Shown in pieces: positions 7,559-37,697 of a DNA stretch of 37,697 nt. Every line of letters starts with the position of its first letter. Position 1 is the first letter of the stretch. The translations under genes and the position numbers were made by a program. The stretch is from Candidatus Saccharimonadales bacterium. GTDB lineage: Bacteria > Patescibacteriota > Saccharimonadia > Saccharimonadales > UBA4665. The notes under the pieces are model-generated. The model was given only the letters and a program-made list of their open reading frames with translations. It had not been told where the DNA came from and made no database searches. The stretch is taken from contig JBASZU010000087.1 in NCBI GenBank assembly GCA_049661165.1, positions 1-37,697 on the forward strand, given 5' to 3'.

Positions 7559-7674
7559 TTGTAAGAATTCTTACAGTAAATGTTGATTGAATATAACCAG
7601 TTACTGCTGTATAACTAATAGGGTAAAGCAGTAGCGTTTATGCTGAACGCTGAAATTTGGCGAGGGAGTCGGAT

Positions 7675-10600
7675 ATGCACATGTTCTATACGAACAAAAC
7701 AAAAACCATCCGCACAAATACCAAATACAAACCTCTAACAATTATCAAAACAGGCATAATCGCAGTCACCCTACTTTGTACGGGTCTACTTGTGTCAAAT
7801 AATCAGCCGCCGGCGTATGCGGCCGAGTTGTGTTACAAAGACGCTCAGGGAGCCAATGACGAACCTAATCAGAAAGATTTGACCAGAGCTTGCTACGAAA
7901 AGACCGGTCTACCAGATTATATTACGGTTAAATGGCAGTGGGATGAGCTTGCAACGTCGGGCAATAACAGCATGGACGGATGTGCGCTCTTTGACACAGA
8001 CGGCGATGGTCTCGTTAACTATGCAGCTTGCGTAACCACGAAAAATGAGGGTACAAATAAAGACGAACACGCAGTGTTCGACGCCCTCACGATGTATTCG
8101 TGCGGTGATAATACGGTAGACAGATGTTCCCAGCCTCTACAGGTCATCCCGAATGGATTGAATACCTGTACTGTTACCCAGCAGTCGAGTGATCCTTTCC
8201 CTATCGGAAGTGAAAACCCGATAGACACGGTCGCAAGCTGCACTATATACCTCAGCACTATTGGTTCCGGCGCGGCTCAGCTTATCGACGCCTGCTCCTA
8301 CCCATCACAACAGCCAAATTCTGACCCTTCAGACTGTGTTCTTATAGACAAAGGACTGGCCAAGCTCTCCGTCGTAAAATCTTTGGTACCTGCTACCGAC
8401 TCTGGTACGTTCAACCTTCAGGTAAATGGCACAACAAAAGCTACCGGAGGTAATCTTACGGACACCGGTACGATAGTGGTTGATGCTGGCGCAAACTTGG
8501 TTGGTGAAACAGCAGCATCTGGCGCGCTGAGTGACTACACGACGGCAATTGAATGCCGTGATCTACACGGCACGGGTGCGGTCGTAGGGAGCAGCACAGG
8601 TGGTACGCTGCTAAATGTAACGGTTGCTGAAAACGCTGACATTCTCTGCACCATAACAAATACGCGCAAAGCCGGACAAATAACGGTTGTCAAAGAAGTG
8701 ACCAATGACAATGGAGGCACGAAAAAAGTTGCAGATTTCCCACTATTTATTAACGGCACCTCCACTACAAGTGGTGTCGCCAAGACACTTTCACCTGGGA
8801 CATATACTGTTTCAGAAACAAACCAGGCAGGTTATCACCAGAAATCGCTGACATGTGTTGATAGTTCAACTGGTCAGGCCGTAGCTCATCCGGTAGAACT
8901 GGGGGATGACCAGAACGTGACATGTACCATTGTGAACGACGACAGGCCAGCTACGTTGACCGTCGTTAAAACATTTGCCAATCAGTACGGCGGCACAACG
9001 AACCCGGCTGACTTCAGCTTTACAATAAACAGCGGCGCACAGACAGCTTTTGAGGCAGACGGTAGTAACCAGCTATCGGTCAATGCAGATACATACAATG
9101 TTGCCGAGACTCCAAAAGGCGGCTTCGCGGCGCCAAGTTACAGTGGGTGTAGCGGTATTGTCCTCTCTGTTGGCGGTAGTGCTACCTGTACTATAACCAA
9201 CAGCGACCTCCCGGCAACTCTTATTGTTAAAAAAATTGTCATCAATGACGATGGCGGTACGGCCACAGCCGATGATTTTTCGTTCCAGGTAAACGATGCG
9301 AGTGCTGTGAAGTTCGAAAAAGACGGCCAAAATGATCTCTTGCTGGCTTCCGGCACATATGGAGTTGTCGAAGCAGACGCTCCGGGATATGCAACTACCT
9401 ACAATAACTGCCAAGAACTAGTAATCGCCAATGGTCAAACACAGACGTGTACCATTACAAACAACGATATCGCACCGACACTGACGCTCGTGAAAGCTGT
9501 AACAAACGATGATGGCGGTACGGCTACTGCTACCAACTGGACGCTAACAGCTCAGTCTACTGATGCCACGCTTCCTGTGCCTAGCGGCAAGACAGGCGAG
9601 GCTGCAGTTACCAATGTAGTGGTCAAGGCCGGCGTGGCTTACGCACTTTCTGAGGCGGATGGGCCGACCGGTTATGCGAGCGAGGGGTGGCAATGTACTG
9701 CTGGAATCATGAAAGACGGCGCCGTAACACTTGCGCTCGCTCAGAATGCTACCTGTACTATTACCAACAACGATATCGCACCGAAACTGACGGTGCGCAA
9801 AGTCACGGAGCCAGCTAGTTCAACGCAGGCATTTTCGTTTGTTGTTACGAACCTCGTAGGTGATACTCCATTTGCGCTCGATACAAACGCCGATACCGTT
9901 ACGCCGAACGAACGCACGTTTACGGCTCTGAGGGCAGGGACAACAACTATTTCTGAGCAAAGTACAGAGGGCTGGGTGCTTGCAGCCGCCAGCTGTGATA
10001 CTGCCAGGGCAGAACTGAACGGCAGCACCTTACAGCTTGAACTTAGTCCTGGCCAAGACGTGACGTGTACATTTACAAACAGCCAACTTGGTAGTGTGGA
10101 GGTAACGAAATTCCGCGATACGAACGAAAATGGCATACTCGATGATACGGAAGAGTTGCTGCCAGACTGGGAGATGAACCTCTCAGAGTCCTGTGAAGGT
10201 GCAGAGTGCGAAGCTTTCACATCGAAAGTCACCAACCAAGATGGTGTGGCCATATTTGAAGGTGTCAGTAGCGGCTCCTATGTATTGAGCGAGACACTCC
10301 AGGATGGTTGGCTGCAAACAGGAATGTACTGTGGTGAACCGGGCGAAACCCCGATAAATACCAATAACCTATCGCTTCGCCTTGGCGCTGGCGCTACACA
10401 ACGCTGCTACGTGGGTAATACCCAGCCGCTTCGTTTGCTGCTTGCCAAAACCAATAACGCATCCTCGGTAAAACAGGTGGGCGACACCGTACTGTACACA
10501 CTGGTTGTGACAAACCCTGAAGACAGCGGCTACGCGAGCGATGCCACGGTGACCGATACTCCTCCTGAGGGCTTCAAATATGTTCTGGGTAGTTGGACAG

Positions 10601-12000
10601 CAGCGTCAAATATACGCGGCGACTTGAAAACAGGAGGGGTTACGACAGAGCCAACATATGCTAGCCCTGGTGACTGGAACCTTGGGGATATGTTGCCGGG
10701 TGAAATCGTGACACTAACGTATTTGACTAAAATAATCGCCGCGAGCGATGGAATATATCCCGACAGCGCCTTTGCATCGGCAGGGTCTGTCCTGGGTGCG
10801 TCTACGGTGTTTTCTAACTTGTCGCTAACGCCAGACAACCCATTTGTCGGGACGCAGGTGACGGTAGATTCACCGCTAGTACCTGGTCCGGTGCAGCGAG
10901 CAGGGGTTGTGTTGGGTGCATCGACCACGTTGCAAAATACAGGAGAGAAGATTATCTCGAGTCTGCTGTTTGCGCTTGGTATCATTGCCGTATCGGTGAT
11001 TGTCTTTGCACGAAAAAAGAAAAGAACTTTAGCATACAACGGAATTCGTACGAGCGCTTTACTACTAGTGTTTGGTCTGGTGCTGTTTGCGGGTGGTACC
11101 GCGCAGGCTGCAACCTACTGGACGACAAATATATCGACACCTGAGGCTCAGACGACCACAGGAGTGTTCGGCATAGATTTTCAAGTGTTGAGTACGACTC
11201 CCAGCGACACGTTTACGGTGCAGCTTTACCAGAATGGCATTGTCATAGCGACCCAAAATATCGCAACAGACAATGGTGACTCGGGTTCATTCCCTATCTC
11301 GCTTACCAGCGACGGCACATACAACTATTTCACCAAAACGCAACACGGCAGCGATGTATCAGATGTGAAAACATCGCCAACACTTACCGTTCAGTTTGAT
11401 AGAACGGCTCCGGCTGCCCCAACTCAGGTGACTAAGACCACAACGACCGGTGGTTACGTCCTGAACTTCCTCGTCCCCGGCGGTACGGAATCGTCCCAGG
11501 TGCAAGTGTTTGCTTCGAGCTCCACAACATTTATTGCTGATGCAAGCACACTTGTGCGCACTATGGCAGCAACGCCAGGCGTGGTTCAGTCAACTGCACT
11601 TGGAGTGAGTGACGGCCAGCCGCGGTATTTTGCGGTACGGACTGTTGACGCTTTCGGCAATACTTCTGCGCTGGTCACAGAGTCGCCTCAAGTCCAGGCA
11701 GCAGCGACTACTACTACGACAGGAGCTGTGCAGGGGGCGTCTACCGCACTCTCGGCCTCGGCAGCGCAGGGTGCCGTAAATGGGGCGAACACGACTTTAG
11801 ATGCAGATAAGACACTACAAACTCAGAATACAACCTCAGCTAGTAACGGCGAGGTTCTTGGGCTAGAGACAGAATCGAAAACAACGCCAGCGGCCAAGCA
11901 GAACGCAACGAATGGCAGAGGTCTCATATGGGTTGTAGCACTCGGTGTTCCCGCAATTATCGCTGCGGTACTACTGTTGACCCGCAAAAAGACATCCTAG
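7675..12000 (+). CDS. Giant cell-surface protein with tandem beta-sandwich repeats, DUF11-like region and Ig/FN3-like C-terminal module
   Basis: 1,441 aa from ATG 7675, with GAGGGAG 7 nt upstream; the track start 7657 is TTG. There is an N-terminal signal peptide (...PPAYA-AE). The module ...TCTITN-D-(A)PTLTVVK..NDDGGT...DFSF... recurs repeatedly, followed by VGDTVLYTLVVTN (DUF11-like). It has an internal and a C-terminal TM plus basic tail. Confidence 0.85.
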   Translation: MHMFYTNKTKTIRTNTKYKPLTIIKTGIIAVTLLCTGLLVSNNQPPAYAAELCYKDAQGANDEPNQKDLTRACYEKTGLPDYITVKWQWDELATSGNNSMDGCALFDTDGDGLVNYAACVTTKNEGTNKDEHAVFDALTMYSCGDNTVDRCSQPLQVIPNGLNTCTVTQQSSDPFPIGSENPIDTVASCTIYLSTIGSGAAQLIDACSYPSQQPNSDPSDCVLIDKGLAKLSVVKSLVPATDSGTFNLQVNGTTKATGGNLTDTGTIVVDAGANLVGETAASGALSDYTTAIECRDLHGTGAVVGSSTGGTLLNVTVAENADILCTITNTRKAGQITVVKEVTNDNGGTKKVADFPLFINGTSTTSGVAKTLSPGTYTVSETNQAGYHQKSLTCVDSSTGQAVAHPVELGDDQNVTCTIVNDDRPATLTVVKTFANQYGGTTNPADFSFTINSGAQTAFEADGSNQLSVNADTYNVAETPKGGFAAPSYSGCSGIVLSVGGSATCTITNSDLPATLIVKKIVINDDGGTATADDFSFQVNDASAVKFEKDGQNDLLLASGTYGVVEADAPGYATTYNNCQELVIANGQTQTCTITNNDIAPTLTLVKAVTNDDGGTATATNWTLTAQSTDATLPVPSGKTGEAAVTNVVVKAGVAYALSEADGPTGYASEGWQCTAGIMKDGAVTLALAQNATCTITNNDIAPKLTVRKVTEPASSTQAFSFVVTNLVGDTPFALDTNADTVTPNERTFTALRAGTTTISEQSTEGWVLAAASCDTARAELNGSTLQLELSPGQDVTCTFTNSQLGSVEVTKFRDTNENGILDDTEELLPDWEMNLSESCEGAECEAFTSKVTNQDGVAIFEGVSSGSYVLSETLQDGWLQTGMYCGEPGETPINTNNLSLRLGAGATQRCYVGNTQPLRLLLAKTNNASSVKQVGDTVLYTLVVTNPEDSGYASDATVTDTPPEGFKYVLGSWTAASNIRGDLKTGGVTTEPTYASPGDWNLGDMLPGEIVTLTYLTKIIAASDGIYPDSAFASAGSVLGASTVFSNLSLTPDNPFVGTQVTVDSPLVPGPVQRAGVVLGASTTLQNTGEKIISSLLFALGIIAVSVIVFARKKKRTLAYNGIRTSALLLVFGLVLFAGGTAQAATYWTTNISTPEAQTTTGVFGIDFQVLSTTPSDTFTVQLYQNGIVIATQNIATDNGDSGSFPISLTSDGTYNYFTKTQHGSDVSDVKTSPTLTVQFDRTAPAAPTQVTKTTTTGGYVLNFLVPGGTESSQVQVFASSSTTFIADASTLVRTMAATPGVVQSTALGVSDGQPRYFAVRTVDAFGNTSALVTESPQVQAAATTTTTGAVQGASTALSASAAQGAVNGANTTLDADKTLQTQNTTSASNGEVLGLETESKTTPAAKQNATNGRGLIWVVALGVPAIIAAVLLLTRKKTS
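8671..10080 (+). repeat. Five tandem ~88-100-aa domain repeats inside the surface protein gene
   Basis: Module boundaries are marked by CTITN/CTIVN/CTFTN followed by xTLTVVK-type strands. Modules 4 and 5 share a 19-nt exact DNA repeat, aacaacgatatcgcaccga, at 9460-9478 and 9766-9784. Confidence 0.8.
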
Positions 12001-15906: not shown

Positions 15907-16146
15907 ATGATGTATTCGAACACACTCACGAGTAAAGGTCAGGTGACCATACCGAAAGAGTTTCGGGACATGCTGGGGCTTCGACCGGGGCAGCAGGTGC
16001 GGTTTACGAAAACTGACTCTGCTACCATATCGATTTCTCGGCCGCTAACAGCTGCTGAACTTCGCGCGAAGATTGGTCCGCCTAGTGGCAACCAGCCTTT
16101 GACCGATAAAGAAAGGCAGCGGTTACGAGCAAGAGGCCTGCTGTAG
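15907..16146 (+). CDS. vapB: AbrB/MazE/SpoVT-family antitoxin (VapB-like)
   Basis: TSKGQVTIPKEFRDMLGLRPGQQVRF is the SpoVT/AbrB signature. It is a paralog of the gene at 471-746. Confidence 0.85.
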   Translation: MMYSNTLTSKGQVTIPKEFRDMLGLRPGQQVRFTKTDSATISISRPLTAAELRAKIGPPSGNQPLTDKERQRLRARGLL

Positions 16147-16529
16147 TGGTTCTGGTAGATGCAAATCATATTTTACGCTGGTTTTTGCAAGATGTACCAG
16201 CTCAGGCGTCTCAGGTAGAGGAGTTGCTCCGGTCGTCGGCGCCAAATAGCTTAGAACTGACATCAGTCACGGTTGCAGAACTGACGTATGTCTTGCGGAC
16301 AATGACGTACGACCATATGCAGATAGTAGGTGTTATAACTGGGTTATGTTCGCTTGAGTCAGTCAGACAGCTTTCGATGGTTGACGCGAAGGCACTACAG
16401 ATTTTTAACGCCACAACACTGGATTACGAGGACTGTTTTCTTATAGCTCAAGCCCTACTAGAAAACGGCGACATTGCTACATTCGATAAAAAACTTCTGA
16501 AAACGCTTGAAAAGCTACAGCTTCCGTAG
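16146..16529 (+). CDS. vapC: PIN-domain toxin (VapC-like)
   Basis: 127 aa. The GTG start shares its G with the antitoxin TAG. VDANHILRWFLQDVP parallels LDANFLLRWLLGDVP of the gene at 748-1140. The C-terminal TFDKKL is conserved. Confidence 0.8.
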   Translation: MVLVDANHILRWFLQDVPAQASQVEELLRSSAPNSLELTSVTVAELTYVLRTMTYDHMQIVGVITGLCSLESVRQLSMVDAKALQIFNATTLDYEDCFLIAQALLENGDIATFDKKLLKTLEKLQLP

Positions 16530-23169: not shown

Positions 23170-23682
23170 GCTAGCTCGCGAAGGATTAGTATATGAGGTT
23201 AATGATTGGCTTGTGCGGGTTGCTGCCGCACGGGATGCAGGTCTTCCTCTCGCCGTGCAAACAAATACACCCCTTGGTAAAGTTTATCTACCGTTTCAGA
23301 AACGCCACGTAGGGAACAGACCCAATTAGGGAATTCTGGCCTATTTGCGCCAATAGGCGAAAACACGACACCGGGATTATTTCTTGGTGGAGACGGCAAG
23401 GAAAAACCATATACATTAGAGGCATTTTTTGAGGATGAGAGCGGCAATAAGCGATTCGCACGGGTCATTGGCGCTGATCCGGTAGCTCTATTGATCTGCG
23501 GGGGTAAATATGACCCCACGCAAGGGGATATAGGGGCGAGCGTGCTTGATGAATCGCTAGTAGGTTGCCCTACCGTAACCAACAAGTATATGGTCACTGG
23601 AAATGGCTCGTTGCAAACCGAAGTATGTGGGTTAGATGGTGCCACCAAGAGACAATTAGAGGGTACAGAGGCAGATGCATAA
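23153..23682 (+). pseudogene. Frameshifted ORF remnant (unknown family)
   Basis: One frame is open over 23153-23326 (...LAREGLVYEVNDWLVRVAAARDAGLPLAVQTNTPLGKVYLPFQKRHVGNRPN*). The -1 frame is open over 23281-23682 (...LFAPIGENTTPGLFLGGDGKEKPYTLEAFFEDESGNKRFARVIGADPVALLICGGKYDP...). Both parts look protein-like. There is no ATG at the 5' end; only GTG 23213 is available. Confidence 0.35.
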
Positions 23683-23775
23683 ACAGGAATAGAGCTGTTC
23701 AACGAACTGGTCGCTAATTGGCTTGTGCCAGTACAAGCAGATCCTGAAGTAGTAAGATAAATTATTTCTGTTTGG

Positions 23776-24159
23776 CTATTTCTTTTTAGTCGCTGAAGCT
23801 TTTTTGGCTGCCGGCTTCTTTACGGCAGCTTTTTTCACCGGGGATGCTTTTTTAACAGGGGCGGCTTTTACTTTGTCGCTCTTAGTACCGCTTGGTACGC
23901 CAGCAGTGCGGGCGTTACGAGCGGCCTGAGCCTTTTTGCGGGCGACTTTGTTTTTGTGCAAGATGCCTTTTTTGGCTGCGCGGTCTAGCTCGCTCTGGAC
24001 TTTGTCGAGCGCCTTAACTGCCTTCTTTTTGTCAGTTGCACCGAGAGCCGAACCAAAAGCTTTCACAGCGGCTTTCAGGCTGCGCTTAGTCTTGCTATTG
24101 CGGATTGTAGCTTTGGTGGCTACTTTTACGCGTTTCTTGGCTGATTTGATAATGGGCAT
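23776..24159 (-). CDS. rpsT: 30S ribosomal protein S20 with Lys/Ala/Pro-rich C-terminal extension
   Basis: MPIIKSAKKRVKVATKATIRNSKTKRSLKAAVK...ILHKNKVARKKAQAAR is canonical S20. About 40 extra residues, ...KAAPVKKASPVKKAAVKKPAAKKASATKKK, follow. Confidence 0.9.
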   Translation of the reverse strand: MPIIKSAKKRVKVATKATIRNSKTKRSLKAAVKAFGSALGATDKKKAVKALDKVQSELDRAAKKGILHKNKVARKKAQAARNARTAGVPSGTKSDKVKAAPVKKASPVKKAAVKKPAAKKASATKKK

Positions 24160-24335: not shown

Positions 24336-26354
24336 ATGGACGACCAACAAAAACAACTCGTAGCCAAGCTCAAAGACGCACAAAACGTCTTGGTTACGGT
24401 AAGCAAAAATCCTTCTGTTGACCAGCTTGCTGCCGCTATCGGACTTACGATTGCACTAAACAAGCTCGACAAGCATGCCACGGCGGTTTACAGCGGCCAG
24501 ACGCCCAGTACCATAGAGTTTTTGAAGCCCGAAGAAACCCTAGAAACAAATACCGACAGTCTGCGTGATTTCATTATTGCACTCGATAAATCCAAGGCTG
24601 ATAAGCTGCGTTATAAGGTTGAAGACCAAGTCGTTCGGATTTTTATAACACCGTACCGGACGTCTATTTCCGAAAACGACCTCGAATTTAGCCAGGGAGA
24701 TTTCAATGTCGATGTTGTCATAGCTCTGGGCGTTCAGGAGCAAACAGACCTTGACGATGCAATCCAAGCGCACGGGCGTATCCTACATGATGCGGTCGTT
24801 GCAACGCTGTCTATTGCAGATAAACCAGAGCTAGGCACGCTTAACATAGTAGATAATGAGGCCAGCAGTCTGTCGGAAATGGTTACGAGGCTCATCCAAA
24901 GCCTAGATAAGTCTGTGCTCGATACGCAGATAGCGACGGCTTTACTAACAGGAATCGTTGCAATGACCGAAAGATTCAGCAACGATCGTACCAGTCCCGA
25001 GACTATGAGTATAAGCGCAAACCTCATGTCGGCCGGTGCAAACCAGCAACTTATTGCAACAGAATTGGATGCAGAGCTTGCCCCCGAACCTCAGACGGCC
25101 AGCACGGCCACGCCTGCTGCAGAAGCGGGTCATACAGATCCAGGAACACTTGCGATAGACCATGGCGAACACGATCCTCCCACTGAATTACCACCCGTAT
25201 CTTCGTCTACTCACGAGAGCGAAGAAGAAATCACCGAAGATGAGCAGCCTCCAGAACAACCACGGTCGGCTGCCCCACAGATTCAGGTTGACGAAAATGG
25301 GCAGCTAATAAGCGGAGACGAAGATAGTCATCCAAAAATCGGTGTTGTTCATAGTCAGTCAGACTCATTACCCCGAGACAGCGGTGCCGAGTCGGCTGTA
25401 ACGAGAGATCGAGTGGTCGAACCCCCGATGCTAGGAGGTGAGCTCACAGCCAACACGAGCGAAGAAGAGCTTGGCGGTTCGTCGGAAGATCTTGGCACTC
25501 CGGCTCAAAATACGCCTATACTTTCGCACAATGAGCGGGTTATCACTCCAAGCCCCAACAAAGAAGTGCCCGAACCGTCTGAGCAGCCTGAACAACCGAG
25601 TCAGCACATGACAGTATCACCATTACCTCCCGTGGCACCTATCGTACCAGCAGCACCCACACCACCGGAGATTCCCGAACCTATACCGCCGACGCCCTCG
25701 GTGCAAGATATAGTTTCTGCAACGACCCAACAATCGCCAGTGCCCGATACCCCGGTGCAGCCGAGCCTTCCTCAAATCAGCCAGCTGCCGGATTTACCTC
25801 AACCGCCAGCCATGCCAGCTTTGACGCCCATGGACACTGACAATACAAATGAGGAGTATATTGATACTGCTCGTCAGACTCTGAGCGATATAGAACATGT
25901 TGTTGATAGCCCGCATATTAGTGCAATGACCGATGATAATTCCGCAGTAGATACCCCTGAAGCAGATATTGATGCTGCCCGGAAGGCTGTTGAGCAAGCA
26001 CTGGCATCTCAACCCGCCCAGACTAACCCAGATCCCATTGTAGCCCTTAATGCTCAACCACTAGGTTCGCAGTTACGCGAAAAACCTGCTTCAGACACAA
26101 CGTATCAGCCGGCACCAGGGTTTGGCTTGCCAGTAACAGAGGCGAATGAGCCAGTTTCTAACACTTCTGCTCCGGATTCAACCGACAACCTGTTGCTACC
26201 AGGTTTGCAGTCACCCCAATCAGTCGCTTCGACTGCAATCCCGGCTACTGCCGCTCCCGTAAGCGCTTTCCCAGGCACACCACCTCCACAGTCAGATAAG
26301 GAGCAAGCACCACCACCTCCTGTGCCGCCACCACCGATATTCCCGACCGCATAG
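24336..26354 (+). CDS. DHH-family (NrnA-like) protein with degenerate catalytic motifs and long Pro-rich tail
   Basis: 672 aa. LLTGIVAMTERFSNDRTSPETMSISANLMSAGANQQLI parallels the NrnA LxTGIxxDTGxFxxxNTT...A..L...G region. The DHH motif positions read SKNPSVDQ, VIALG and SIAD instead of H.NPDGDA, VVDT and IDHH. Residues from about 245 to 672 are Pro/Ser/Glu-rich low complexity. It sits upstream of truB, as nrnA does in several Gram-positive lineages. Confidence 0.6.
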   Translation: MDDQQKQLVAKLKDAQNVLVTVSKNPSVDQLAAAIGLTIALNKLDKHATAVYSGQTPSTIEFLKPEETLETNTDSLRDFIIALDKSKADKLRYKVEDQVVRIFITPYRTSISENDLEFSQGDFNVDVVIALGVQEQTDLDDAIQAHGRILHDAVVATLSIADKPELGTLNIVDNEASSLSEMVTRLIQSLDKSVLDTQIATALLTGIVAMTERFSNDRTSPETMSISANLMSAGANQQLIATELDAELAPEPQTASTATPAAEAGHTDPGTLAIDHGEHDPPTELPPVSSSTHESEEEITEDEQPPEQPRSAAPQIQVDENGQLISGDEDSHPKIGVVHSQSDSLPRDSGAESAVTRDRVVEPPMLGGELTANTSEEELGGSSEDLGTPAQNTPILSHNERVITPSPNKEVPEPSEQPEQPSQHMTVSPLPPVAPIVPAAPTPPEIPEPIPPTPSVQDIVSATTQQSPVPDTPVQPSLPQISQLPDLPQPPAMPALTPMDTDNTNEEYIDTARQTLSDIEHVVDSPHISAMTDDNSAVDTPEADIDAARKAVEQALASQPAQTNPDPIVALNAQPLGSQLREKPASDTTYQPAPGFGLPVTEANEPVSNTSAPDSTDNLLLPGLQSPQSVASTAIPATAAPVSAFPGTPPPQSDKEQAPPPPVPPPPIFPTA

Positions 26355-26380: not shown

Positions 26381-27067
26381 ATGCAGGGCATACTTCTTGT
26401 CGATAAACCGTCTGGGTGGACGAGTTTTGATGTGGTGAATTATGTGCGCAAAATTGTTGCCCAGGCCGAGGGCAAGAAACCTAAAAACTGTAAAGTAGGG
26501 CATACGGGCACACTTGACCCGCTGGCTACGGGACTGCTCGTGATACTGGTGGGCAAGGAGTACACTCGCCGTGCTGCTGAGCTGAGCAAACACGACAAAA
26601 CGTACGAGGTCACGATGAAGCTGGGTCAAACAAGCACCACGGGTGATGATGAGGGGGAGAAGACCCCTGTTAATTCGCGCATCCCGGGTGAAAATGAGGT
26701 TCTTGCAGCACTTCAGAAATTTACCGGGAGTATCATGCAGACCCCGCCGATCTATTCAGCCATTAAGATCAATGGTCAGAAAGCCTATGACTTGGCTCGG
26801 AAGGGCAAGGAGGTGAAGCTTGAACCGCGCCCAGTAACTATATATGAAATAAGAAACATGAAATATTCATACCCTCTGGTTCGGTTTACCTGTGATGTCA
26901 GTAGTGGCACGTATATTCGTTCACTGGTGGCAGATGTTGGTGAGGCGCTCGGAACGGGCGCGTATATGTCAGGCCTACGCCGTACAAAAGTGGGTGATTA
27001 CGATCTGGCAAATGCCGCGCAGTTGAGCCGGTTGGGCCAAGTCCAGCTAGCAGATCTATTGCAATAG
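26381..27067 (+). CDS. truB: tRNA pseudouridine(55) synthase
   Basis: GILLVDKPSGWTSFDVV...VGHTGTLDPLATGLLVILVGK..T... is the TruB catalytic Asp motif. 228 aa. Confidence 0.92.
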   Translation: MQGILLVDKPSGWTSFDVVNYVRKIVAQAEGKKPKNCKVGHTGTLDPLATGLLVILVGKEYTRRAAELSKHDKTYEVTMKLGQTSTTGDDEGEKTPVNSRIPGENEVLAALQKFTGSIMQTPPIYSAIKINGQKAYDLARKGKEVKLEPRPVTIYEIRNMKYSYPLVRFTCDVSSGTYIRSLVADVGEALGTGAYMSGLRRTKVGDYDLANAAQLSRLGQVQLADLLQ

Positions 27068-30896: not shown

Positions 30897-33014
30897 ATGG
30901 ACAACAAAGGAAATAGAGGCAAGCGACCACAAAATGGCCAGAAAAATGGGCAACGAGGTGGAGGCAACGGGGGCGGAAATGGCTTCCGCGGTAAAAACGG
31001 CGGCGGAAATGCTACGCAGAACCAGTCTCAGCCGCAAAACGGTGAAAAACGACCGACGGTCAGCCGTGGTGCCGCTGTGCGGGCGCAAAAGCGGACGCAA
31101 ATGGATGCGCAGCGCGTGGCAAACCAGTGGATGCCAGCCCAGGTAGACGAAAACCGCCGCACGAACTTTATAGACGATTCGCCGCGCCTAAAAATCATCG
31201 GCCTTGGTGGTATGGACGGCGGCGGTAGCAAAAACATGATGCTTGTCGAGTATGTGAACGACGCCGTAGTGATAGATGCGGGAAACGATTTGAGTGTTGA
31301 CTTGCCGGGCATAAACTACGGCATAGCCGACACGGCATATATGGAAACAATCCGCCATAAACTACGTGCCTACATTATCACTCACGGACACCTCGATCAC
31401 ATTGGCGGTTTGCCACACATTGTACCGAAGTATCCGGCACCAGTGTATGGCAGTAAGTTCACCATTGGCCGGGTGCACGAAATTTTTGAGAATTTTGGTT
31501 TGCCTATGCCCGAAGGTTTCGAACTTAAAACAGTCGAAATGAACGAAGACACCCACGAACGCCTGAAGATTGGCGAATTTTTTGTAGAACTCGTGCGGGT
31601 GACGCACTCAATACCTGGTAGTACCATTGTGGTACTCGATACACCAGTGGGGCGCATCATAAACACAGGCGACTTCCGCTTTGACCCGAACCCGCTCGAC
31701 CACGAACGCACCGACATGGAGCGGCTCATAGAGCTTGGCAACGAAGGTGTGCTAGCACTGTTGAGTGAAAGTACAACAGTGGAGCGCTTGGGTCGAACGC
31801 CGTCAGAGAGTACTATCGAGCAGAGCTTTAAAGATATTATGCAGCAAGCACCCGGTCGTATCTTTGTGGGTGTATTTAGTACAAATATGAACCGCATACA
31901 GATGATTGTGAATGCGGCCGTACACCATGGCCGCAAAGTCGCAATAGATGGTCGCAGCATGGTGAGTACGCTTGAAATGGCGGTGCGCCACGGCTTCATG
32001 AAGATTCCAAAGGGCACATTCATACCGATTGCACAGGTGGGGACTATGACAGATGGCCAGGTTGTGGTGATCTGTACCGGGAGTCAGGGTGAGCCATCAT
32101 CTGCGCTGCAGCGTATGGCGAATGGTGAACACCGGCACATAAAACTAAAAGAGCAAGATACCGTCATTCTATCTAGTACACCAATCCCGGAAAGCGGTAA
32201 CGATGCGCTCATTGGCCAGATGGTCGATGACCTTACCAAAAACCATGTACATGTCTTCGAACACCGTAATCACGAGCTAGACAAGGTTGGACCACTCCAC
32301 GTTTCTGGCCATGCCAGCCAGGATGAATACGCCGAGATGATCCAAATGACCAAACCGAAGTTTTTCATCCCAATCTACGGGGCTTACCGGGTAAAACAGC
32401 GACACATTGACCTCGCCATAGAGCAGGGTATACCGCGCGCAAACTGCCTAAACGCCCTGAACGGTGAAGTTATAGCCCTTACTCCCGAAAAAATGGAAGT
32501 TATTGGTGAAGTGCCAAGCGGCACTATACTCGTTGACCAAACAGGCGCCATTGTCAGTAACGTGGTAGTCAAAGACCGAGTGCTTCTGGCCGAAGAAGGC
32601 CTGGTAGCCGTTGTTCTGACCGTCGATAAGAAGTCGGGCAACTTGCTTACGAGCCCCGATATCATTAGCCGCGGCTTCATATATATGCGTGAACAAGAAG
32701 ATATGATGAATGGTCTGCGTACCGAGGTTCGCCGCGCTGTCCAGCAGCGCTACAAGCGCATCGACATAGACCGGTTTAAGGCCGAACTGAAAGATCACAT
32801 TACGCACTATTTGTTTGAACAAACTGGTCGCAGCCCAATAGTTATACCGGTACTTAACATTGTAGGTGGTAAAAACGAAAAACAGGGTCCGCAGGGCAAA
32901 ACAGACAAACCTGCAGAACCACAGAAAACACCAGAGGAAATTGCCGCCGAGCAGCAAGCGCGCTTCCAGGCCATGCGCGAACGTCTCCTCAACCAAGACC
33001 CCCGTGTTGACTAA
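30897..33014 (+). CDS. rnj: Ribonuclease J with Gly/Asn/Arg-rich N-terminal extension
   Basis: 705 aa. Metallo-beta-lactamase motif ITHGHLDHIGG, a beta-CASP region, and HVSGHASQDE. The first ~75 residues are low complexity (GNRGKRPQNGQKNGQRGGGNGGGNGFRGKNGGGN...). Confidence 0.9.
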   Translation: MDNKGNRGKRPQNGQKNGQRGGGNGGGNGFRGKNGGGNATQNQSQPQNGEKRPTVSRGAAVRAQKRTQMDAQRVANQWMPAQVDENRRTNFIDDSPRLKIIGLGGMDGGGSKNMMLVEYVNDAVVIDAGNDLSVDLPGINYGIADTAYMETIRHKLRAYIITHGHLDHIGGLPHIVPKYPAPVYGSKFTIGRVHEIFENFGLPMPEGFELKTVEMNEDTHERLKIGEFFVELVRVTHSIPGSTIVVLDTPVGRIINTGDFRFDPNPLDHERTDMERLIELGNEGVLALLSESTTVERLGRTPSESTIEQSFKDIMQQAPGRIFVGVFSTNMNRIQMIVNAAVHHGRKVAIDGRSMVSTLEMAVRHGFMKIPKGTFIPIAQVGTMTDGQVVVICTGSQGEPSSALQRMANGEHRHIKLKEQDTVILSSTPIPESGNDALIGQMVDDLTKNHVHVFEHRNHELDKVGPLHVSGHASQDEYAEMIQMTKPKFFIPIYGAYRVKQRHIDLAIEQGIPRANCLNALNGEVIALTPEKMEVIGEVPSGTILVDQTGAIVSNVVVKDRVLLAEEGLVAVVLTVDKKSGNLLTSPDIISRGFIYMREQEDMMNGLRTEVRRAVQQRYKRIDIDRFKAELKDHITHYLFEQTGRSPIVIPVLNIVGGKNEKQGPQGKTDKPAEPQKTPEEIAAEQQARFQAMRERLLNQDPRVD
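32940..33013 (+). repeat. Direct repeat copy 1 (authentic rnj 3' end)
   Basis: 74 nt, 71/74 identical to 35058-35131. It encodes IAAEQQARFQAMRERLLNQDPRVD followed by TAA. Confidence 0.9.
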
Positions 33015-33035
33015 TGCACAGTTTCTTGCTATAAT
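33007..33035 (+). promoter_or_regulatory. Promoter of the 665-aa gene
   Basis: TTGACT (33007-33012, the last codons of rnj and part of the repeat), 17-nt spacer, then TGcTATAAT (33027-33035). ATG 33059 follows a short leader with no SD. Confidence 0.5.
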
Positions 33036-33058
33036 AATAGCTACACAGTAAAACGAAA

Positions 33059-35056
33059 ATGTTCAATATATATCCCATTCCTCCTACATCACAAGAAGAC
33101 GAATGCGTACCGGCAGAGGAAGCGTCAATCCCGACCTCTGCCGCTTGGCTAGGCGAGCTTGCCATATTTGACGGAATTGCAGCCACGCTTAAAGAATGGA
33201 CATCGAAAGCCTCTCAATCCCAGCGCACTCCAGGAAACCCCTACGTTGTGGGATTCGTCAGGGACGGAGAAGGACTTATGAAGCCAATTTACGGACCTAA
33301 AACATTTACGACGGAGAGAGGTTTCGTAGAGGGCCAATTTATATTTGGAGCAGATCCGAGCCGAGAGGTATTTCTCCAGGAGCCAAAGAGTTTGAAGGTA
33401 GATGGTCAGAGACTAACAAAAGGGAAGTATTGGGATGTCCTACCAGAAGACCTGAAAAAAATATTTCTAGGAGGTAACATCCTGATTACAAGTGGCGAAG
33501 ATCTGTATCCTATCTCTTCGGAACGAGACGGTCTAGGAGTAAATATTATGCCAACGATGGAAGAAATTGACGAGGCGATCGTCCAACAACAGGGAACCAA
33601 AACAGTTATTCTGTACACAGGGGCATATAGGATGGGGCGAAAAAAAGGTGGTGCCGAAGGAAGAACAGGTGTACTTGTCCGTATAGTTGACGGCAATATC
33701 AAGCCGCTAACTGTTGAGGCGGACGGGGAACAATATGCTATTGAGCTGAAAGGGTGCGGTACTAGTGGGGGTGGTTTTGGCGCTTCACATTCTCGGACGG
33801 GTAGAGAGATTGTGACCGGTGGTTGTGAAGCCGTGCAAGCTGTGGATGAACTAATACAGCTTGATAGAAATAATACTCCTGGCGGCACAAAAGCTGTGGC
33901 CGCAATCACTTTCTATAACCCAGAAACAAAGATATTTGGCCAAAAAAGTCTGCAACCATACCACCAAGGATATGTTGTACGGCTGATACCCTCTACGCTT
34001 AGGGCGTCATATAGTGGTATAGATGCTTATCCGCCGCAGCTATATAGCAAAGAATACGCAAATGCAGTCTTGGCAATGTTCACGGCAGGCCTTGTAAATG
34101 GCATAAGGGCTGAGGTGCCAAGCATTTTGGATCGTTCAGCACATTCTGAAAATATAGTGTTGTGGGGTAATGGACAGTTTGAAACGACCGATTTCTCTGA
34201 CCAAGTGCCGTTCAATGACCCAAATTATCCTTACCAAGCCGAAAGTGGTGGCTTTATGACTGTGAAGAATATGCTTACACACTATGTAAATATGATGGAG
34301 GAAACCCCGGGATTCGTCGTTGCGGGTGGATATAAAGCCTTTGTTGCACATCTCAATCAAGGTCTAGAGATGATAGGAGTGGGACGCCTACAATACGATG
34401 CAGAAATTACTCGTTCGGTGATTGTAAACCATATTTGGCAAAATGGTCTTGCCAAGAGAGTTTTTGAGACTCGAAGTGCTCATGGTTACTACCCGGAAGG
34501 TGTCGAGAAGGCAGCGGCTGTAGCTTTTGAAGAATTGTGCAAAAAAGTGGATGCTGACGATGAAGCAAGTTTTTGCGCGGCGGTTGATGCCTACACGCGC
34601 AGTATTGCCGAATTTATGGATAAGCTATACCCAGTTGAAGGACCACACAAACAAGTTAATCACCTAAGGAATGACAGCTACGATGCTGCCGTGTTTCATA
34701 TCTCATTGCCCACACTTCATATAGCCGTCCAGAAATATGGGGAAATATTTAATAATGATATCAATGCAGGGTTGAGTATATATGAAGCGCTTCATGCCAT
34801 CATAGAGCCAGTCAGAAGGTATCTGGAAGACGAACTCGATATTGGGAAAACTGCTTTGGAATGGGGCAAAGACGAAAAGATTGCCGAGCACGTAATGGAA
34901 GTTGAACAAAAAATTGCAAAGTTTAACGCTATGCTAGAATCTCCGGCAGAGTTTTGGCGGTTCATGACTGAAAAAAGGGAGCTTAGGGATATGCTTGCCT
35001 CAAAAGCGTATAGTAACCAAGGGGTTGTCACGCCTCCTACTCTGGTTACTGTCTAA
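33059..35056 (+). CDS. Large orphan protein with SelO/YdiU-like (protein-kinase-fold) core motifs
   Basis: 665 aa. The central region reads AIELKGCGTSGGGFGASHSRTGREIV..CEAVQAVDEL...TKAVAAITF...VVRLIPSTLRASY...SAHSENIVLWGNGQFETTDFSDQVPF. This mirrors the SelO order hxLKGxGxTP.SR.GDGR...E...A...TTRAL...RVAPSxLRFG...AHGVMNTDN...LDYGPFGF. The N- and C-terminal thirds are unassigned. Confidence 0.7.
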   Translation: MFNIYPIPPTSQEDECVPAEEASIPTSAAWLGELAIFDGIAATLKEWTSKASQSQRTPGNPYVVGFVRDGEGLMKPIYGPKTFTTERGFVEGQFIFGADPSREVFLQEPKSLKVDGQRLTKGKYWDVLPEDLKKIFLGGNILITSGEDLYPISSERDGLGVNIMPTMEEIDEAIVQQQGTKTVILYTGAYRMGRKKGGAEGRTGVLVRIVDGNIKPLTVEADGEQYAIELKGCGTSGGGFGASHSRTGREIVTGGCEAVQAVDELIQLDRNNTPGGTKAVAAITFYNPETKIFGQKSLQPYHQGYVVRLIPSTLRASYSGIDAYPPQLYSKEYANAVLAMFTAGLVNGIRAEVPSILDRSAHSENIVLWGNGQFETTDFSDQVPFNDPNYPYQAESGGFMTVKNMLTHYVNMMEETPGFVVAGGYKAFVAHLNQGLEMIGVGRLQYDAEITRSVIVNHIWQNGLAKRVFETRSAHGYYPEGVEKAAAVAFEELCKKVDADDEASFCAAVDAYTRSIAEFMDKLYPVEGPHKQVNHLRNDSYDAAVFHISLPTLHIAVQKYGEIFNNDINAGLSIYEALHAIIEPVRRYLEDELDIGKTALEWGKDEKIAEHVMEVEQKIAKFNAMLESPAEFWRFMTEKRELRDMLASKAYSNQGVVTPPTLVTV

Positions 35057-35057
35057 G

Positions 35058-35131
35058 ATTGCCGCCGAGCAGCAAGCGCGCTTCCAGGCCATGATCGAAC
35101 GTCTCCTCAACCAAGACCCCCGCGTTGACTA
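35058..35131 (+). repeat. Direct repeat copy 2 (orphan rnj 3'-end fragment)
   Basis: It would encode IAAEQQARFQAMIERLLNQDPRVD followed by TAG. No ORF precedes it in frame, because the upstream gene ends at TAA 35054-35056 in another frame. Confidence 0.9.
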
Positions 35132-35143
35132 GCATAATCATTA

Positions 35144-35172
35144 TTGACAAATAGTCAATGATTTGCTAATAT
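35144..35172 (+). promoter_or_regulatory. Promoter for the gene at 35179
   Basis: TTGACA (35144-35149), 17-nt spacer, then TGcTAATAT (35164-35172). ATG 35179 is 6 nt downstream, so the mRNA would be leaderless. Confidence 0.55.
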
Positions 35173-35178
35173 GTGTTT

Positions 35179-35478
35179 ATGGCAAATAAAATGACTCCCG
35201 GTTCTAATATGCCGTTAGTCGAGGACTTTTGGGCTCCTGCCGATGATCGAATGATATGGCCACGTACACGAGAGGATATTGAGTTTGGCGATACAGCGGC
35301 TTTCGTAGAAGAACTTTATGCGGATCCGAATATTGTTGGTCGTGCTCGTCATGAACCTTCGCGACCCGTTGAAGATATCTCAAGCTTTCCTAAAGCCTAT
35401 ACGCCCGTATCTGTGACTCCGAGTGCCCTTGCAAAAGTTTCACGGTTGATTGGTGTACGACCTCCAACTGAAGAATAA
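35179..35478 (+). CDS. Small acidic hypothetical protein
   Basis: 99 aa from ATG 35179. No TM segment and no recognised motif. Confidence 0.5.
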   Translation: MANKMTPGSNMPLVEDFWAPADDRMIWPRTREDIEFGDTAAFVEELYADPNIVGRARHEPSRPVEDISSFPKAYTPVSVTPSALAKVSRLIGVRPPTEE

Positions 35479-35505: not shown

Positions 35506-35534
35506 TTGACACAAGTTGTATTTCTTGCTATAAT
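35506..35534 (+). promoter_or_regulatory. Promoter for the gene at 35542
   Basis: TTGACA (35506-35511), 17-nt spacer, then TGcTATAAT (35526-35534). ATG 35542 is 7 nt downstream. Confidence 0.6.
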
Positions 35535-35541
35535 ATAATTT

Positions 35542-35829
35542 ATGACCGAAACACCAAAAGGTTCACAAATTCCAAGCATAAAAGGTGACCCAGAACGATA
35601 TCCAGGCGCACATACTGGAGCTCATGGTGACCCAGTGAAGCTGATTGATGTTGCAGAAAAAGTCGTTAGAGTGATTGAGGCAAATGTACCAAAGGCGGTA
35701 GATACTGTAGAGATGACAACCGAACGAGCGAGGAGAATCATACTTGCATTTCAGGACGGTAAAAATGTTGACACCGGTGTACTTGATGACGCGAGAAGAT
35801 ATATGCATAGACAGGTCTCAGACGAGTAG
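35542..35829 (+). CDS. Small hypothetical protein
   Basis: 95 aa, predicted soluble, with no recognised motif. Confidence 0.5.
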   Translation: MTETPKGSQIPSIKGDPERYPGAHTGAHGDPVKLIDVAEKVVRVIEANVPKAVDTVEMTTERARRIILAFQDGKNVDTGVLDDARRYMHRQVSDE

Positions 35830-35865
35830 ACGAAAACACCGAAAAATAGTATAATCAAAAGCGTT

Positions 35866-37697
35866 ATGGCGAAAAAGAAAAAGCAAGCAAAAAAGAAGGC
35901 AGCAGCTCCGGTTGAGCGAGAACCATCGCCCGTTGTAGGCTATGTGCTAGCGGTAGTTTTTATACTGGCGGCAATTTTTATATTTCTAGGTGGATTTCAC
36001 GCTGGTGGTACGCTGCCAAAAGGACTTTTTGGAGCCATGAGCTGGCTGTTTGGTTGGGGGGCATGGCTGGTGCCGATAAGCCTGCTCTACTGGGGCTACT
36101 ACAAATTTACAAACGATGACCACCGGGTACCACGCGGCCGCGTTTTTAGTATGTATATGTTTTTGGTACTTATGTCCGCCTGGTTCTTTACAGCGTTTGC
36201 GAGCGTTAAAGATGAGCCGGGTCTAGCTACGCAAACAGTGGGCGGTAACGGCGGTGAAGTGGGTGGTGCTGTGGGCGATGCTGTTCTTTCTGCTCTCGAC
36301 AAGGTTCCGGCGAGCCTGCTATTTTTTGCGTTTGGTCTGCTTACATTCTTTTTTGCTTTTGGCATATCGCCCAAAGTACTACTAAACCTAGGTAAGCTAT
36401 TCCATCGTGGTGAAAACGATGAGCCCGAAGGAGAACTGGCCGCACTGAAGGCCAAAGCGGCGCAGAGTGGTTTTCAGTTGAACGAAGGCGTGCCAGTTGT
36501 GAAGCATAGCGAAGGTTCGCTGGCGAAAGAACAGGTTCACCATTCCAACTTCCGTAATACTGCACAAAAATTGAGTGCAAACGAAAGTCATGAAGCCCTC
36601 ACTACGGCGAGCGATCCCGACTGGAAGCTGCCGGGTGTTGACCTGCTCGACCAACGTCAAGACAAGGCCGATGCGGGGAATGTGGAGGGTAACGCCCGCA
36701 TAATCAAGGAGACGTTTGCTAACTTCGCCATAGACGTGGAGATGGAGGGCGCAAACATTGGTCCGCGCGTGACACAGTACACGCTGCGGCCACCCACTGG
36801 CGTCAAACTTACGAAAATTACCGCGCTCGAAAACAACCTTGCACTTGACCTCGCGGCCACAACTATCCGTATGGAAGCACCCATACCCGGCAAAAGGGCT
36901 GTGGGTATAGAAGTACCGAATGTAAAGGGCGCAACGGTGCGGCTGAGTTCTATTTTCCAATCCCGCGAGTGGGCGGAGTCGGAGGGTGCGCTCACGTTTG
37001 CTATAGGGAAAGACATAGTGGGCCACAGCGTGGTTGCCGACCTAGCGCGTATGCCACACCTTCTTGTAGCTGGTCAGACAGGCTCTGGTAAATCTGTCAT
37101 GATAAACGACATCTTGACCAGCCTGCTATACCGCAACAGCCCAAGCGACCTCAAGCTCATTCTGGTAGACCCAAAACAGGTTGAGCTAACGCCGTACAAT
37201 GACCTTCCGCACCTCCTGACGCCCGTTATACACGAGCCGGAAAAGTGCATATCGGCGCTCAAATGGGCGGTGGCAGAAATGGAGCGTCGCCTGCGCACTA
37301 TGGCGGAAGTGAGCAAGCGCAACATAGAGGAGTATAACCTCATTAAGCCAGAAGAAAAAATGCCCTACGTTGTCATCGTTATAGACGAGCTAAGCGACCT
37401 CATGATGATGGCGGCGCGTGATGTTGAGGCGCTTATTGTCCGCGTGGCGCAGAAAGCACGGGCGGCTGGCATCCACCTTATACTTGCAACGCAGCGTCCG
37501 AGTGTGAATGTTATAACTGGGCTCATCAAAGCGAACGTGCCCGCTCGCATAGCATTTACGACTGTCAGCCAGGTAGACAGCCGAACTATCATAGACCAAA
37601 TGGGAGCAGAGAAGCTGCTCGGCCGGGGTGATATGCTGTACCAGACATCTGAAATGCCCGCACCAAAACGTGTTCAGGCCGCTTTTGTGAGCGACGG
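35866..37697 (+). CDS. ftsK: DNA translocase FtsK (3' end outside the window)
   Basis: It is not in the supplied ORF track because no stop falls inside the window. The frame is open from ATG 35866. N-terminal TM helices are followed by a linker and the motor domain, with Walker A GQTGSGKS (GSGKS codons begin at 37081), VVIVIDELSDLMM and ILATQRPSVNVITG. TATAAT at 35850-35855. Confidence 0.9.
   Translation, partial: MAKKKKQAKKKAAAPVEREPSPVVGYVLAVVFILAAIFIFLGGFHAGGTLPKGLFGAMSWLFGWGAWLVPISLLYWGYYKFTNDDHRVPRGRVFSMYMFLVLMSAWFFTAFASVKDEPGLATQTVGGNGGEVGGAVGDAVLSALDKVPASLLFFAFGLLTFFFAFGISPKVLLNLGKLFHRGENDEPEGELAALKAKAAQSGFQLNEGVPVVKHSEGSLAKEQVHHSNFRNTAQKLSANESHEALTTASDPDWKLPGVDLLDQRQDKADAGNVEGNARIIKETFANFAIDVEMEGANIGPRVTQYTLRPPTGVKLTKITALENNLALDLAATTIRMEAPIPGKRAVGIEVPNVKGATVRLSSIFQSREWAESEGALTFAIGKDIVGHSVVADLARMPHLLVAGQTGSGKSVMINDILTSLLYRNSPSDLKLILVDPKQVELTPYNDLPHLLTPVIHEPEKCISALKWAVAEMERRLRTMAEVSKRNIEEYNLIKPEEKMPYVVIVIDELSDLMMMAARDVEALIVRVAQKARAAGIHLILATQRPSVNVITGLIKANVPARIAFTTVSQVDSRTIIDQMGAEKLLGRGDMLYQTSEMPAPKRVQAAFVSD

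Follow-up and report, generated by a model that had tools for sequence, protein, structure and literature searches.

In a Candidatus Saccharimonadales bacterium of the GTDB lineage UBA4665, the 3' end of rnj, the gene encoding RNase J, has received a 2,118-bp unit that brings its own copy of the rnj end, and the displaced original end is still recognizable downstream. The stretch of DNA analysed, which is called the window throughout, comprises 37,697 nucleotides (nt; positions 1 to 37,697 of the forward strand of contig JBASZU010000087.1, NCBI GenBank assembly GCA_049661165.1). The insertion with regeneration of the rnj end, its recurrence at this site, the transfer of DNA between lineages, and the absence of a recombinase borne by the cassette can be regarded as established. 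The mechanism must be inferred, and our favoured reading, to which we give a probability of roughly 0.6, is that the insertion was driven by homology. The unit would consist of a replacement for the last 24 rnj codons with their stop, a strong sigma-70 promoter, and a gene for a 665-amino-acid (aa) protein with a kinase-like fold. In this reading rnj remains intact because the insert supplies the tail, and the original tail, still with its downstream promoter, would have been moved 2.1 kb downstream to become an untranslated orphan.

Between positions 30000 and 37697, a repeat finder returned a single long repeat pair, namely a direct repeat of 74 nt (32940-33013 and 35058-35131) that is identical at 71 of its 74 positions and has a spacing of 2118 nt; we calculate that ~3e-30 pairs of this quality would be expected by chance in 37.7 kb. 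The mismatches are CG at 32976-77 versus AT at 35094-95, and T at 33005 versus C at 35123. Identity ends one base to the left of each copy and, on the right, within the stop codon, for which copy 1 has an in-frame TAA (33012-14) and copy 2 an in-frame TAG (35130-32), and the sequences 3' of the two copies are dissimilar to each other. The second copy starts one base past the TAA (35054-56) of the 665-aa open reading frame (ORF), which lies in another frame. The interval between the copies holds one promoter and this one gene, and the -35 hexamer of the promoter, placed by the promoter scan in a TTGACT-17-TATAAT arrangement, is made of the last rnj codons and lies within the repeat. An earlier note, written from the sequence alone, had described the repeat with its mismatches and stops, the orphan state of the second copy, the one-gene content of the interval and the position of the hexamer, and all of these were confirmed here.

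The duplicated segment corresponds to a defined part of the protein. In RNase J, a C-terminal extension follows the catalytic and C-terminal domains, which end at residue 653, and the final 24 residues of this extension are those encoded by the repeat. The tail peptide (IAAEQQARFQAMRERLLNQDPRVD, followed by the stop) is conserved phylum-wide, in all rnj loci examined. In Saccharibacterial RNase J, the last ~24 residues (..QQxRFxxMRxxLLxQDxRxD, then the stop) lie beyond RNase_J_C and a low-complexity linker, and this conserved end looks like a binding motif. At the nucleotide level, the AT at 35094-35095, which changes MRER to MIER in the orphan, is found in the window only, and all other public contigs of the species with coverage there (L001-L003 and L106-L112) have CG; two of the three mismatches are thus private to the window. 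This dinucleotide could be explained either by a strain-specific double substitution in an unconstrained copy or by a consensus error at the repeat. The species-wide differences between the copies are CGT/CGC and TAA/TAG only, and the longest identical run between the tails in the window clade (L001-L003) is 65 nt.

Table 1. Positions of rnj, the repeat copies, the promoters and the neighbouring genes in the window
Feature	Position	Strand	Basis or remark
rnj (RNase J, 705 aa), target gene	30897..33014	+	Pfam RNase_J_b_CASP 2e-43, RNase_J_C 9e-25; NCBIfam TIGR00649, 479 bits against a cut-off of 400
Repeat copy 1, functional rnj 3' end	32940..33013	+	Ancestral flank stays with copy 2, not copy 1
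Promoter P1 of the cargo gene, TTGACT-17-TATAAT, TG before -10	33007..33035	+	Promoter scan, 11/12 matches
Cargo gene, 665 aa, predicted kinase-like fold	33059..35056	+	Structure prediction; GC content at third codon positions (GC3) 0.40
Repeat copy 2, orphan with its own stop TAG (35130-32)	35058..35132	+	Colinear with the rnj tail and flank of L034
Promoter P2, TTGACA-17-TAATAT	35144..35172	+	Homologous promoters directly 3' of the rnj stop in L034 and L005
99-aa ORF, no known family, this species only	35179..35478	+	Family searches; GC3 0.32; contig search
Promoter P3, perfect TTGACA-17-TATAAT	35506..35534	+	Conserved in L010, L011 and L019
95-aa ORF, no known family	35542..35829	+	Pfam; GC3 0.33
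Further strong promoter	35827-35855	+	Promoter scan
ftsK, truncated by the window end; conserved right-hand border of the interval	35866..37697	+	Pfam FtsK_SpoIIIE 5e-59; synteny

A repeat of this kind in a metagenomic contig could arise from assembly, or from a tandem duplication in place without any gene transfer. Short de Bruijn contigs do break within the repeat, and the private dinucleotide in the orphan of the window is possibly a consensus error, both of which would fit an artefact. However, the two junctions are spanned by three NCBI contigs from metagenome-assembled genomes (L001, L002 and L003), each of which holds both copies, and two ENA contigs, L107 assembled with MEGAHIT and L111 assembled with SPAdes, are continuous across the end of the 665-aa gene, the orphan and part of the following gene. 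These junction-spanning contigs stem from different samples and assemblers, so that at least five independent assemblies argue against an error. The 665-aa protein occurs with identical sequence in the three NCBI assemblies and in one Logan run. The k-mer-based (de Bruijn) Logan contigs stop where a true repeat with copies differing only at position 66 predicts. The earlier note had asked that an assembly-induced duplication be ruled out, and this has been done with the five contigs above. A duplication in place is opposed by the almost exclusively synonymous divergence of the tails, by the foreign composition of the cargo, by the lack of the similarity that it requires between the flanks after the two copies, and, as is an artefact, by the recurrence of the same architecture in nine lineages, one of them represented by a complete genome. 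A related scheme, tandem duplication of tail and gene followed by deletion, was dropped on sequence grounds, since the sequences after the two copies are unrelated. Collectively, assembly error and in-place duplication are effectively excluded.

The direction of the event could be deduced from relatives that lack the unit. An RNase J protein scan of species-representative genomes gave 72 rnj loci, nearly all from Candidatus Saccharibacteria or Saccharimonadales. In the closest species (L010; RNase J 96% and FtsK 98% identical), there is a single rnj tail, and between it and ftsK lie, in this order, 12 nt, a TTGACA...TATAAT promoter and a small ORF; the 665-aa, 99-aa and 95-aa genes are all absent from the interval. 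In L034, whose RNase J is 88% identical, the rnj tail and 42 nt past the stop align without interruption (93/116) to 35058-35172 of the window, through the stop codon and including the downstream promoter P2. A single tail directly followed by the sequence found from 35132 onwards is the empty site that the earlier note had proposed to look for; L034 shows exactly this configuration and L010 a single tail. Because the tail and flank of L034 are colinear with the orphan and its flank, the orphan represents the ancestral rnj end, and the insertion accordingly comprises copy 1, P1 and the 665-aa gene, copy 1 being most likely a replacement end brought in by the insert. P2 is read from these alignments as the ancestral promoter downstream of rnj. 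A comparable case is given by L011, in which the third tail copy has the same 3' flank as rnj in L010. As for the claim that the insertion is recent, the empty sites support an insertion, but its age is uncertain, since homologues with 42-44% identity and shorter orphans occupy the same site in two other lineages.

The tails themselves indicate where copy 1 came from. Over seven independent events, 28 of the codon changes between orphan and resident tails are synonymous or preserve the stop and 10 are non-synonymous, five of the latter being boundary codons, whereas the synonymous fraction expected of random substitutions is 0.22 (binomial P=2e-11). The tails of L098 add six synonymous and three non-synonymous changes, and in L101 the copies differ at 12 of 30 nt and both encode LLNQDPRVD followed by a stop. 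Such near-synonymous divergence is unattainable by neutral decay of an untranslated copy, which implies that the copies diverged as working rnj ends in different lineages, and therefore that one of them was imported by inter-lineage transfer and was not produced by local duplication. Codon-usage likelihood did not single out the native tail of L101.

Composition and mosaicism provide further information on gene flow at the locus. GC3 is 0.32-0.40 in the three genes of the interval (0.40 in the cargo) versus 0.54-0.59 in rnj, ftsK, udg and pnp. Homologues of the 665-aa protein in L005 and L082 also lie directly after rnj, and the three proteins are equidistant from one another (42-44% identity); the FtsK proteins of L005 and L082 are 85% identical, versus 75% to that of the window. 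The rnj gene is a recombination mosaic, with identities to L010 of 75-98% in 150-nt windows, and contains a patch (~31750-32350) with 75-81% identity versus 87-98% outside it. In L003, an L010-like rnj body (97%, without the patch) is joined to sequence identical to that of the window from ~32800 through 36073, the cassette region included.

Orphan tails were searched for in each locus with its own rnj tail, with a peptide motif and with a nucleotide profile of all tails, and they were found in nine or more lineages, where the single gene that precedes the orphan differs from case to case. The orphan of the window clade (74 nt) is exceeded in length only by that of L019 (complete genome CP064992.1), where a repeat of 147 nt with 99% identity bounds a cargo of a 471-aa family. 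The orphans of the other lineages measure 60 nt (L062/L103, 100% identical), 48 nt (L029) and ~43 nt (L082-84, with a homologue of the 665-aa protein as cargo), and a decaying orphan of ~50 nt follows a PLD-like cargo in L098. Arrays of two are present in L011, with orphans of 47 and 60 nt after a 471-aa ORF and an AAA_14/DUF4143 ATPase gene, and in L101, where an AIRS-like gene is followed by a 30-nt orphan and the next gene (a 230-aa ORF) by another orphan, which is decayed; L092 is a strain related to L101 whose sequence reaches ftsK. In L005, only a 10-nt remnant, TGTTGACTAA, is left 2 nt past the gene stop, and it now serves as a -35 box. A degenerate tail-pattern scan of metagenomes yielded 15 contigs, two of which represent new orphan-bearing lineages.

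These cases share several properties. In all orphan copies the similarity stops at the rnj stop codon, and in every case one co-oriented ORF with its own promoter lies between the copies; in 8 of 10 junctions, 0-12 nt separate the cargo stop codon from the orphan. The left edges vary, giving lengths from 10 to 147 nt, and they are unequal even for homologous cargo (47 versus 147 nt in the 471-aa family; 74, 43 and 10 nt with the 665-aa homologues). Read-through or fusion of the orphan to the cargo was dropped on sequence grounds, as the reading frames of the two agree in about 3 of 7 cases, no more often than expected by chance.

Two of these loci deserve separate description. In L005 (2753-2790), the rnj stop (TGA) overlaps the -35 box of a P2-type promoter (GTTGATTGACAAATAG...) that directly drives the 667-aa cargo homologue; it looks as if the 12-nt spacer present in L034 and the window had been deleted between two TTGAC motifs. 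In L019 (9953-10099 and 10276-11644), rnj (~9953-9975) and the cargo of the 471-aa family, which is in three pieces, appear frameshifted, and the repeat copies differ by one C in a C-run. These frameshifts are probably long-read homopolymer errors rather than signs of pseudogenes.

The recurrence supports the suggestion of the earlier note that the interval is an insertion hotspot. The order udg-rnj-ftsK is conserved in about 66 lineages, and between the rnj stop and the ftsK start these lineages have anything from 89 to 4835 nt. A Pfam scan of the 89 interval ORFs of at least 90 aa from these 66 lineages left about three quarters without a domain. The matches obtained were an AAA_14/DUF4143 ATPase, PLD-like and AIR-synthase-like proteins, a CdiA_C toxin domain, a PIN/Phd toxin-antitoxin pair, a GH46 chitosanase, DHDPS, five DUF5684 proteins, one IS1595 transposase and one Replic_Relax protein. 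With the tail duplications described above, the rnj-ftsK interval of Saccharibacteria is a hypervariable hotspot for single-gene cassettes. The literature searched, a limited set, contained no account of rnj as an integration site or of this hotspot.

With regard to mechanism, the earlier note had named a Campbell-type single crossover and a site-specific integration that regenerates its target; the insertion itself stands, and the choice between the two is unsettled, leaning to homology. The homology-driven reading is favoured because the tail does not resemble a recognition site, because left edges vary for homologous cargo, because rnj is a mosaic, and because cultivated Saccharibacteria are naturally transformable. 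The rnj tail is the last conserved stretch before the variable region and hence would act as a homology arm. DNA taken up by naturally competent cells would recombine by RecA-type homologous recombination, by one of two routes. The first would be a Campbell-type single crossover of a circularised [tail-promoter-gene] molecule; the second would be a double crossover with the rnj body as left arm and the orphan tail of the donor as right arm, so that a donor with a tail-gene-tail arrangement could pass its cassette to any recipient. Cassettes of promoter, ORF and rnj-tail copy would accumulate in the rnj-ftsK interval, at times as arrays, and recombination between tail copies would delete a cassette precisely, leaving an empty site as in L010 and L034. 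Orphans would then shrink from the left, their right end at times surviving in the role of a -35 box for the promoter that follows. Shorter orphans are also less similar, in a series that leads from 147 nt at 99% through 30 nt with 12 differences to the 10-nt remnant and that fits erosion in a streamlined genome.

The first route resembles Campbell-type insertion-duplication in its succession of homology segment, insert and homology segment, in its intact target and in the possibility of loss by repeat recombination. A Campbell insertion depends on a circular double-stranded molecule, and natural transformation normally supplies none, and a RecA-type crossover needs roughly 25-30 nt or more of uninterrupted identity. 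The tails of L019 (147 nt at 99%), of the window clade (a 65-nt run) and of L062 (60 nt) offer this much, and the repeats of such young cases (60-147 nt, 97-100%) are workable for RecA; the diverged cases offer too little identity. In cultivated Saccharibacteria, DNA enters the cell through ComEC and is integrated by homologous recombination (PMC10633639). The window ORFs scanned include neither a com gene nor recA.

Several observations weigh against the homology-driven reading. The identical runs in L101 (5 nt), L082 (11 nt) and L029 (17 nt) are too short for a RecA-type crossover in the tail, and in these three lineages rnj would have to have been exchanged for another allele afterwards, or a different mechanism would apply. 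The right edge is always the stop codon and the cargo stop is mostly close to the orphan, which looks more precise than would be expected from homology alone; we propose that streamlining deletions, together with inter-lineage homology ending at the stop codon, may have produced this precision. The origin of the first [gene + tail] junction is unaccounted for by homology. Among the 21 contigs with the 99-aa ORF, from as many records, no same-species empty allele or circle junction was found; all of them either include the end of the 665-aa gene or break within the repeat. Finally, the recombinase search described below covered the loci rather than whole genomes, so that a recombinase could be encoded in trans.

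The short identical runs, the edge precision and the unexplained first junction make site-specific integration by a recombinase acting in trans a serious rival, which we hold to be possible, though only tentatively so. In this scheme the rnj tail, and above all its final bases near GTTGAYTRR, would be the attachment site, and a recombinase encoded in the chromosome or on a helper element would release promoter-ORF-tail cassettes in circular form and integrate them at the rnj stop. It would account for the stop codon as the right boundary of every orphan, for the cargo stop codons that abut the orphans, for the two-cassette arrays in L011 and L101, the two orphans of the latter sharing their left edge, and for insertion in L101 and L082, whose tails are too diverged for a homologous crossover. 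The L101 orphans resemble each other and the tails of the window clade (27/30) and not the resident tail, as would be expected if a cassette carried its own site and crossed over at its far right. Precedents exist in ccr-less staphylococcal cassette chromosome (SCC) elements at rlmH, integrative mobile elements exploiting Xer (IMEX) that use the host Xer proteins, integron cassettes and degraded tycheposons.

However, the recombinase that such a scheme requires was not found. The scan of window ORFs, which covered all except 23199-23702, 23776-24159, 24336-26354 and 26381-27067 (TruB by annotation), contained no integrase or transposase, so that the statement of the earlier note that none is visible in the window holds for the ORFs scanned. 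The 89 interval ORFs from 66 lineages include no tyrosine or serine recombinase, and the IS1595 transposase and the Replic_Relax protein occur at a single locus each. The tail does not behave as a recognition site either. Given the same amino acid, codon identity among 67 lineages is 0.42 in the tail versus 0.40 in the rest of rnj (P=0.21), indicating no nucleotide-level conservation beyond the coding constraint, although a core of less than 8 nt at the stop codon could escape this test. DNA folding of both copies on both strands showed no hairpin or palindrome (z -0.36 to +1.42 versus shuffles). A tail conserved as protein and not as DNA, without secondary structure, is unlike a recognition site. 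In addition, the left edges differ for homologous cargo, and viral contigs gave no match to the degenerate tail pattern, thus no tail-bearing element. Two specific sites were considered and rejected: for an integron-like site, GTTGACT mismatches the GTTRRRY core consensus, there is no hairpin and there is no intI; a Xer/dif-like site was dropped on sequence grounds, the tail being GC-rich, coding and synonymously variable.

A further alternative, which we judge quite unlikely, is one-sided, homology-facilitated illegitimate recombination followed by erosion. A donor fragment of [rnj 3' part-stop-promoter-gene] would anchor in rnj by homology and its far end would join within the recipient rnj tail, the remainder of which, up to the stop, would be left as the orphan and later trimmed. 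This would explain the formation of the arrangement de novo, the variable left edge, a right edge where inter-lineage homology ends, the near-synonymous divergence and the retention of the recipient flank by the orphan, and it would draw on the documented natural competence. Longer orphans are also more like the resident tail (147 nt, 99%; 74 nt, 97-99%; 60 nt, 100%; 43-50 nt, 6-12 differences; 30 nt, 12 differences). On the other hand, it predicts arbitrary joining distances past the cargo stop, where mostly 0-12 nt are seen, and it leaves unexplained the two L101 orphans with the same left edge and the orphans that are unlike the resident tail.

The homology-driven insertion favoured here can be compared with known systems of gene acquisition. 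In staphylococci, SCC and SCCmec elements enter the 3' end of rlmH (orfX) by Ccr serine recombinases at a fixed integration site of ~15 nt; ccr-less pseudo-SCC cassettes and tandem composite islands also exist there. The rnj cassettes are similar in that insertion occurs at the last codons of a housekeeping gene whose end is regenerated, direct repeats bound the units, units are stacked in tandem and some units lack a recombinase. They are different in that no recombinase was found, the repeats measure 10-147 nt, the left edges vary, the units are single-gene units of 0.8-2.1 kb and the site is not conserved at the nucleotide level. Integrase-bearing islands (prophages, integrative and conjugative elements, and integrative mobilizable elements) likewise show direct repeats of a target 3' end, a regenerated target and empty sites in relatives; unlike them, the rnj insert has no recombinase, no conserved att core and no constant left edge. 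Integron arrays share the single, co-oriented ORF per cassette, the fixed platform and a repeat-like site after each cassette. At the rnj locus, by contrast, no intI was found in the ORFs scanned, the repeats are a non-folding coding tail and not a palindromic attC, and the cassettes have their own promoters.

Minimal mobile elements, or recombinase-less flexible islands, are exchanged in competent bacteria by homologous recombination in flanking core genes. The rnj-ftsK interval is similar to them in being a variable segment between two core genes, in lacking mobility genes, in belonging to a competent host and in having a flanking gene that is mosaic; their exchanges leave no duplicated end of the flanking gene, whereas the duplicated tail is the hallmark here. 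Tycheposons, which form islands in Prochlorococcus, target tRNA genes, and intact elements carry tyrosine recombinases and replication modules (bioRxiv 10.1101/2020.12.28.424599). Their islands resemble the rnj locus in the streamlined genome, in the fixed position beside a conserved gene, in older units being pushed inward and in scattered partial copies of the target end. The differences are the protein-coding tail as target and the absence of an intact integrase-bearing element in the 66 lineages.

The 665-aa cargo protein has no match in Pfam, NCBIfam, PHROGs or PADLOC, and its family is rare, with 13 clusters or homologues among 5.8 billion proteins. An AlphaFold (AF2) model built from a 12-sequence alignment reached a mean predicted local distance difference test score (pLDDT) of 74 and a predicted template modelling score (pTM) of 0.74. 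Foldseek matches of this model in the PDB were almost all protein kinases, at weak E values of ~1e-3 and probabilities of 0.85-0.99, and a profile search of PDB sequences gave the kinases GAK (E=0.008) and StkP, aligned at the catalytic-loop region. The invariant residues of the family include K231, E264, H362, E364, N365 and D378. The model and these searches point to a divergent kinase-fold enzyme or pseudokinase and not to a recombinase. SelO-like motifs were read by eye, and the SelO family was not confirmed. Distant homologues (32-38%) occur in unrelated contexts in other organisms. One of them, a 33% homologue in an unrelated organism (L085, 9083-11940), lies ~0.9 kb from a serine recombinase and a DDE transposase, and the family may travel on mobile DNA outside Saccharibacteria.

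The remaining genes of the interval and of the window can be described briefly. The 99-aa and 95-aa ORFs, with GC3 of 0.32-0.33, have no homologue in any other lineage fetched and are probably further acquired genes without a flanking tail copy. A near-identical strong promoter (TTGACACAAGTTGTATTT(T/C)TTGCTATAAT) is present across species, at 35506-35534 in the window, 10034-10065 in L010, ~13073-13101 in L011 and ~11930-11958 in L019. This conserved P3-type promoter precedes a small ORF before ftsK, and the ORFs (95 aa in the window, ~108 in L010, 100 in L011 and 115 in L019) have no detectable similarity; such promoters may also serve as portable homology. A promoter and terminator scan of the region found no terminator-like site between the genes on the + strand, and the window gave zero tRNA or Rfam matches. 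Upstream of rnj lie udg, a gene for a 23S-IVP protein and the PNPase gene. Elsewhere in the window, two PIN-domain genes (736-1140 and 16146-16529) likely encode toxins of toxin-antitoxin systems, and the product of 7657-12000 (1447 aa) contains repeats of a SpaA-type prealbumin-fold domain and is probably an adhesin of the cell surface or a pilus-like protein, which is of interest for an epibiont.

The genomes of CPR (candidate phyla radiation)/Patescibacteria are tiny and contain few recognisable mobile elements, and their gain of accessory genes is poorly understood. The rnj locus provides a concrete and repeatable footprint of gene gain, in which single genes with their own promoters, mostly without an assigned function, have been added at the end of an essential RNA-decay gene that stays intact. 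The origin of the DNA can be read from the displaced gene ends, and the near-synonymous divergence between orphan and resident ends offers a sequence test for distinguishing imported gene ends from local duplications, which could be used at other hotspots. The locus is also experimentally tractable, because Saccharibacteria are transformable and the 74-nt tail is a candidate minimal homology arm; if a recombinase is involved, the rnj tail site is the place to look for its target. A bolder idea, which we consider rather improbable, is that Saccharibacteria possess a self-addressing cassette system, in which a gene linked to a short copy of the rnj tail gains an 'address label'. If this were true, natural transformation would insert labelled genes at rnj in any lineage, irrespective of the sequence downstream, either without a dedicated recombinase or with one acting in trans. 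Integron-like arrays of promoter-bearing single-gene cassettes would be built in this way, and ultra-small genomes of the CPR, poor in mobile elements, would have a distinct route of gene gain.

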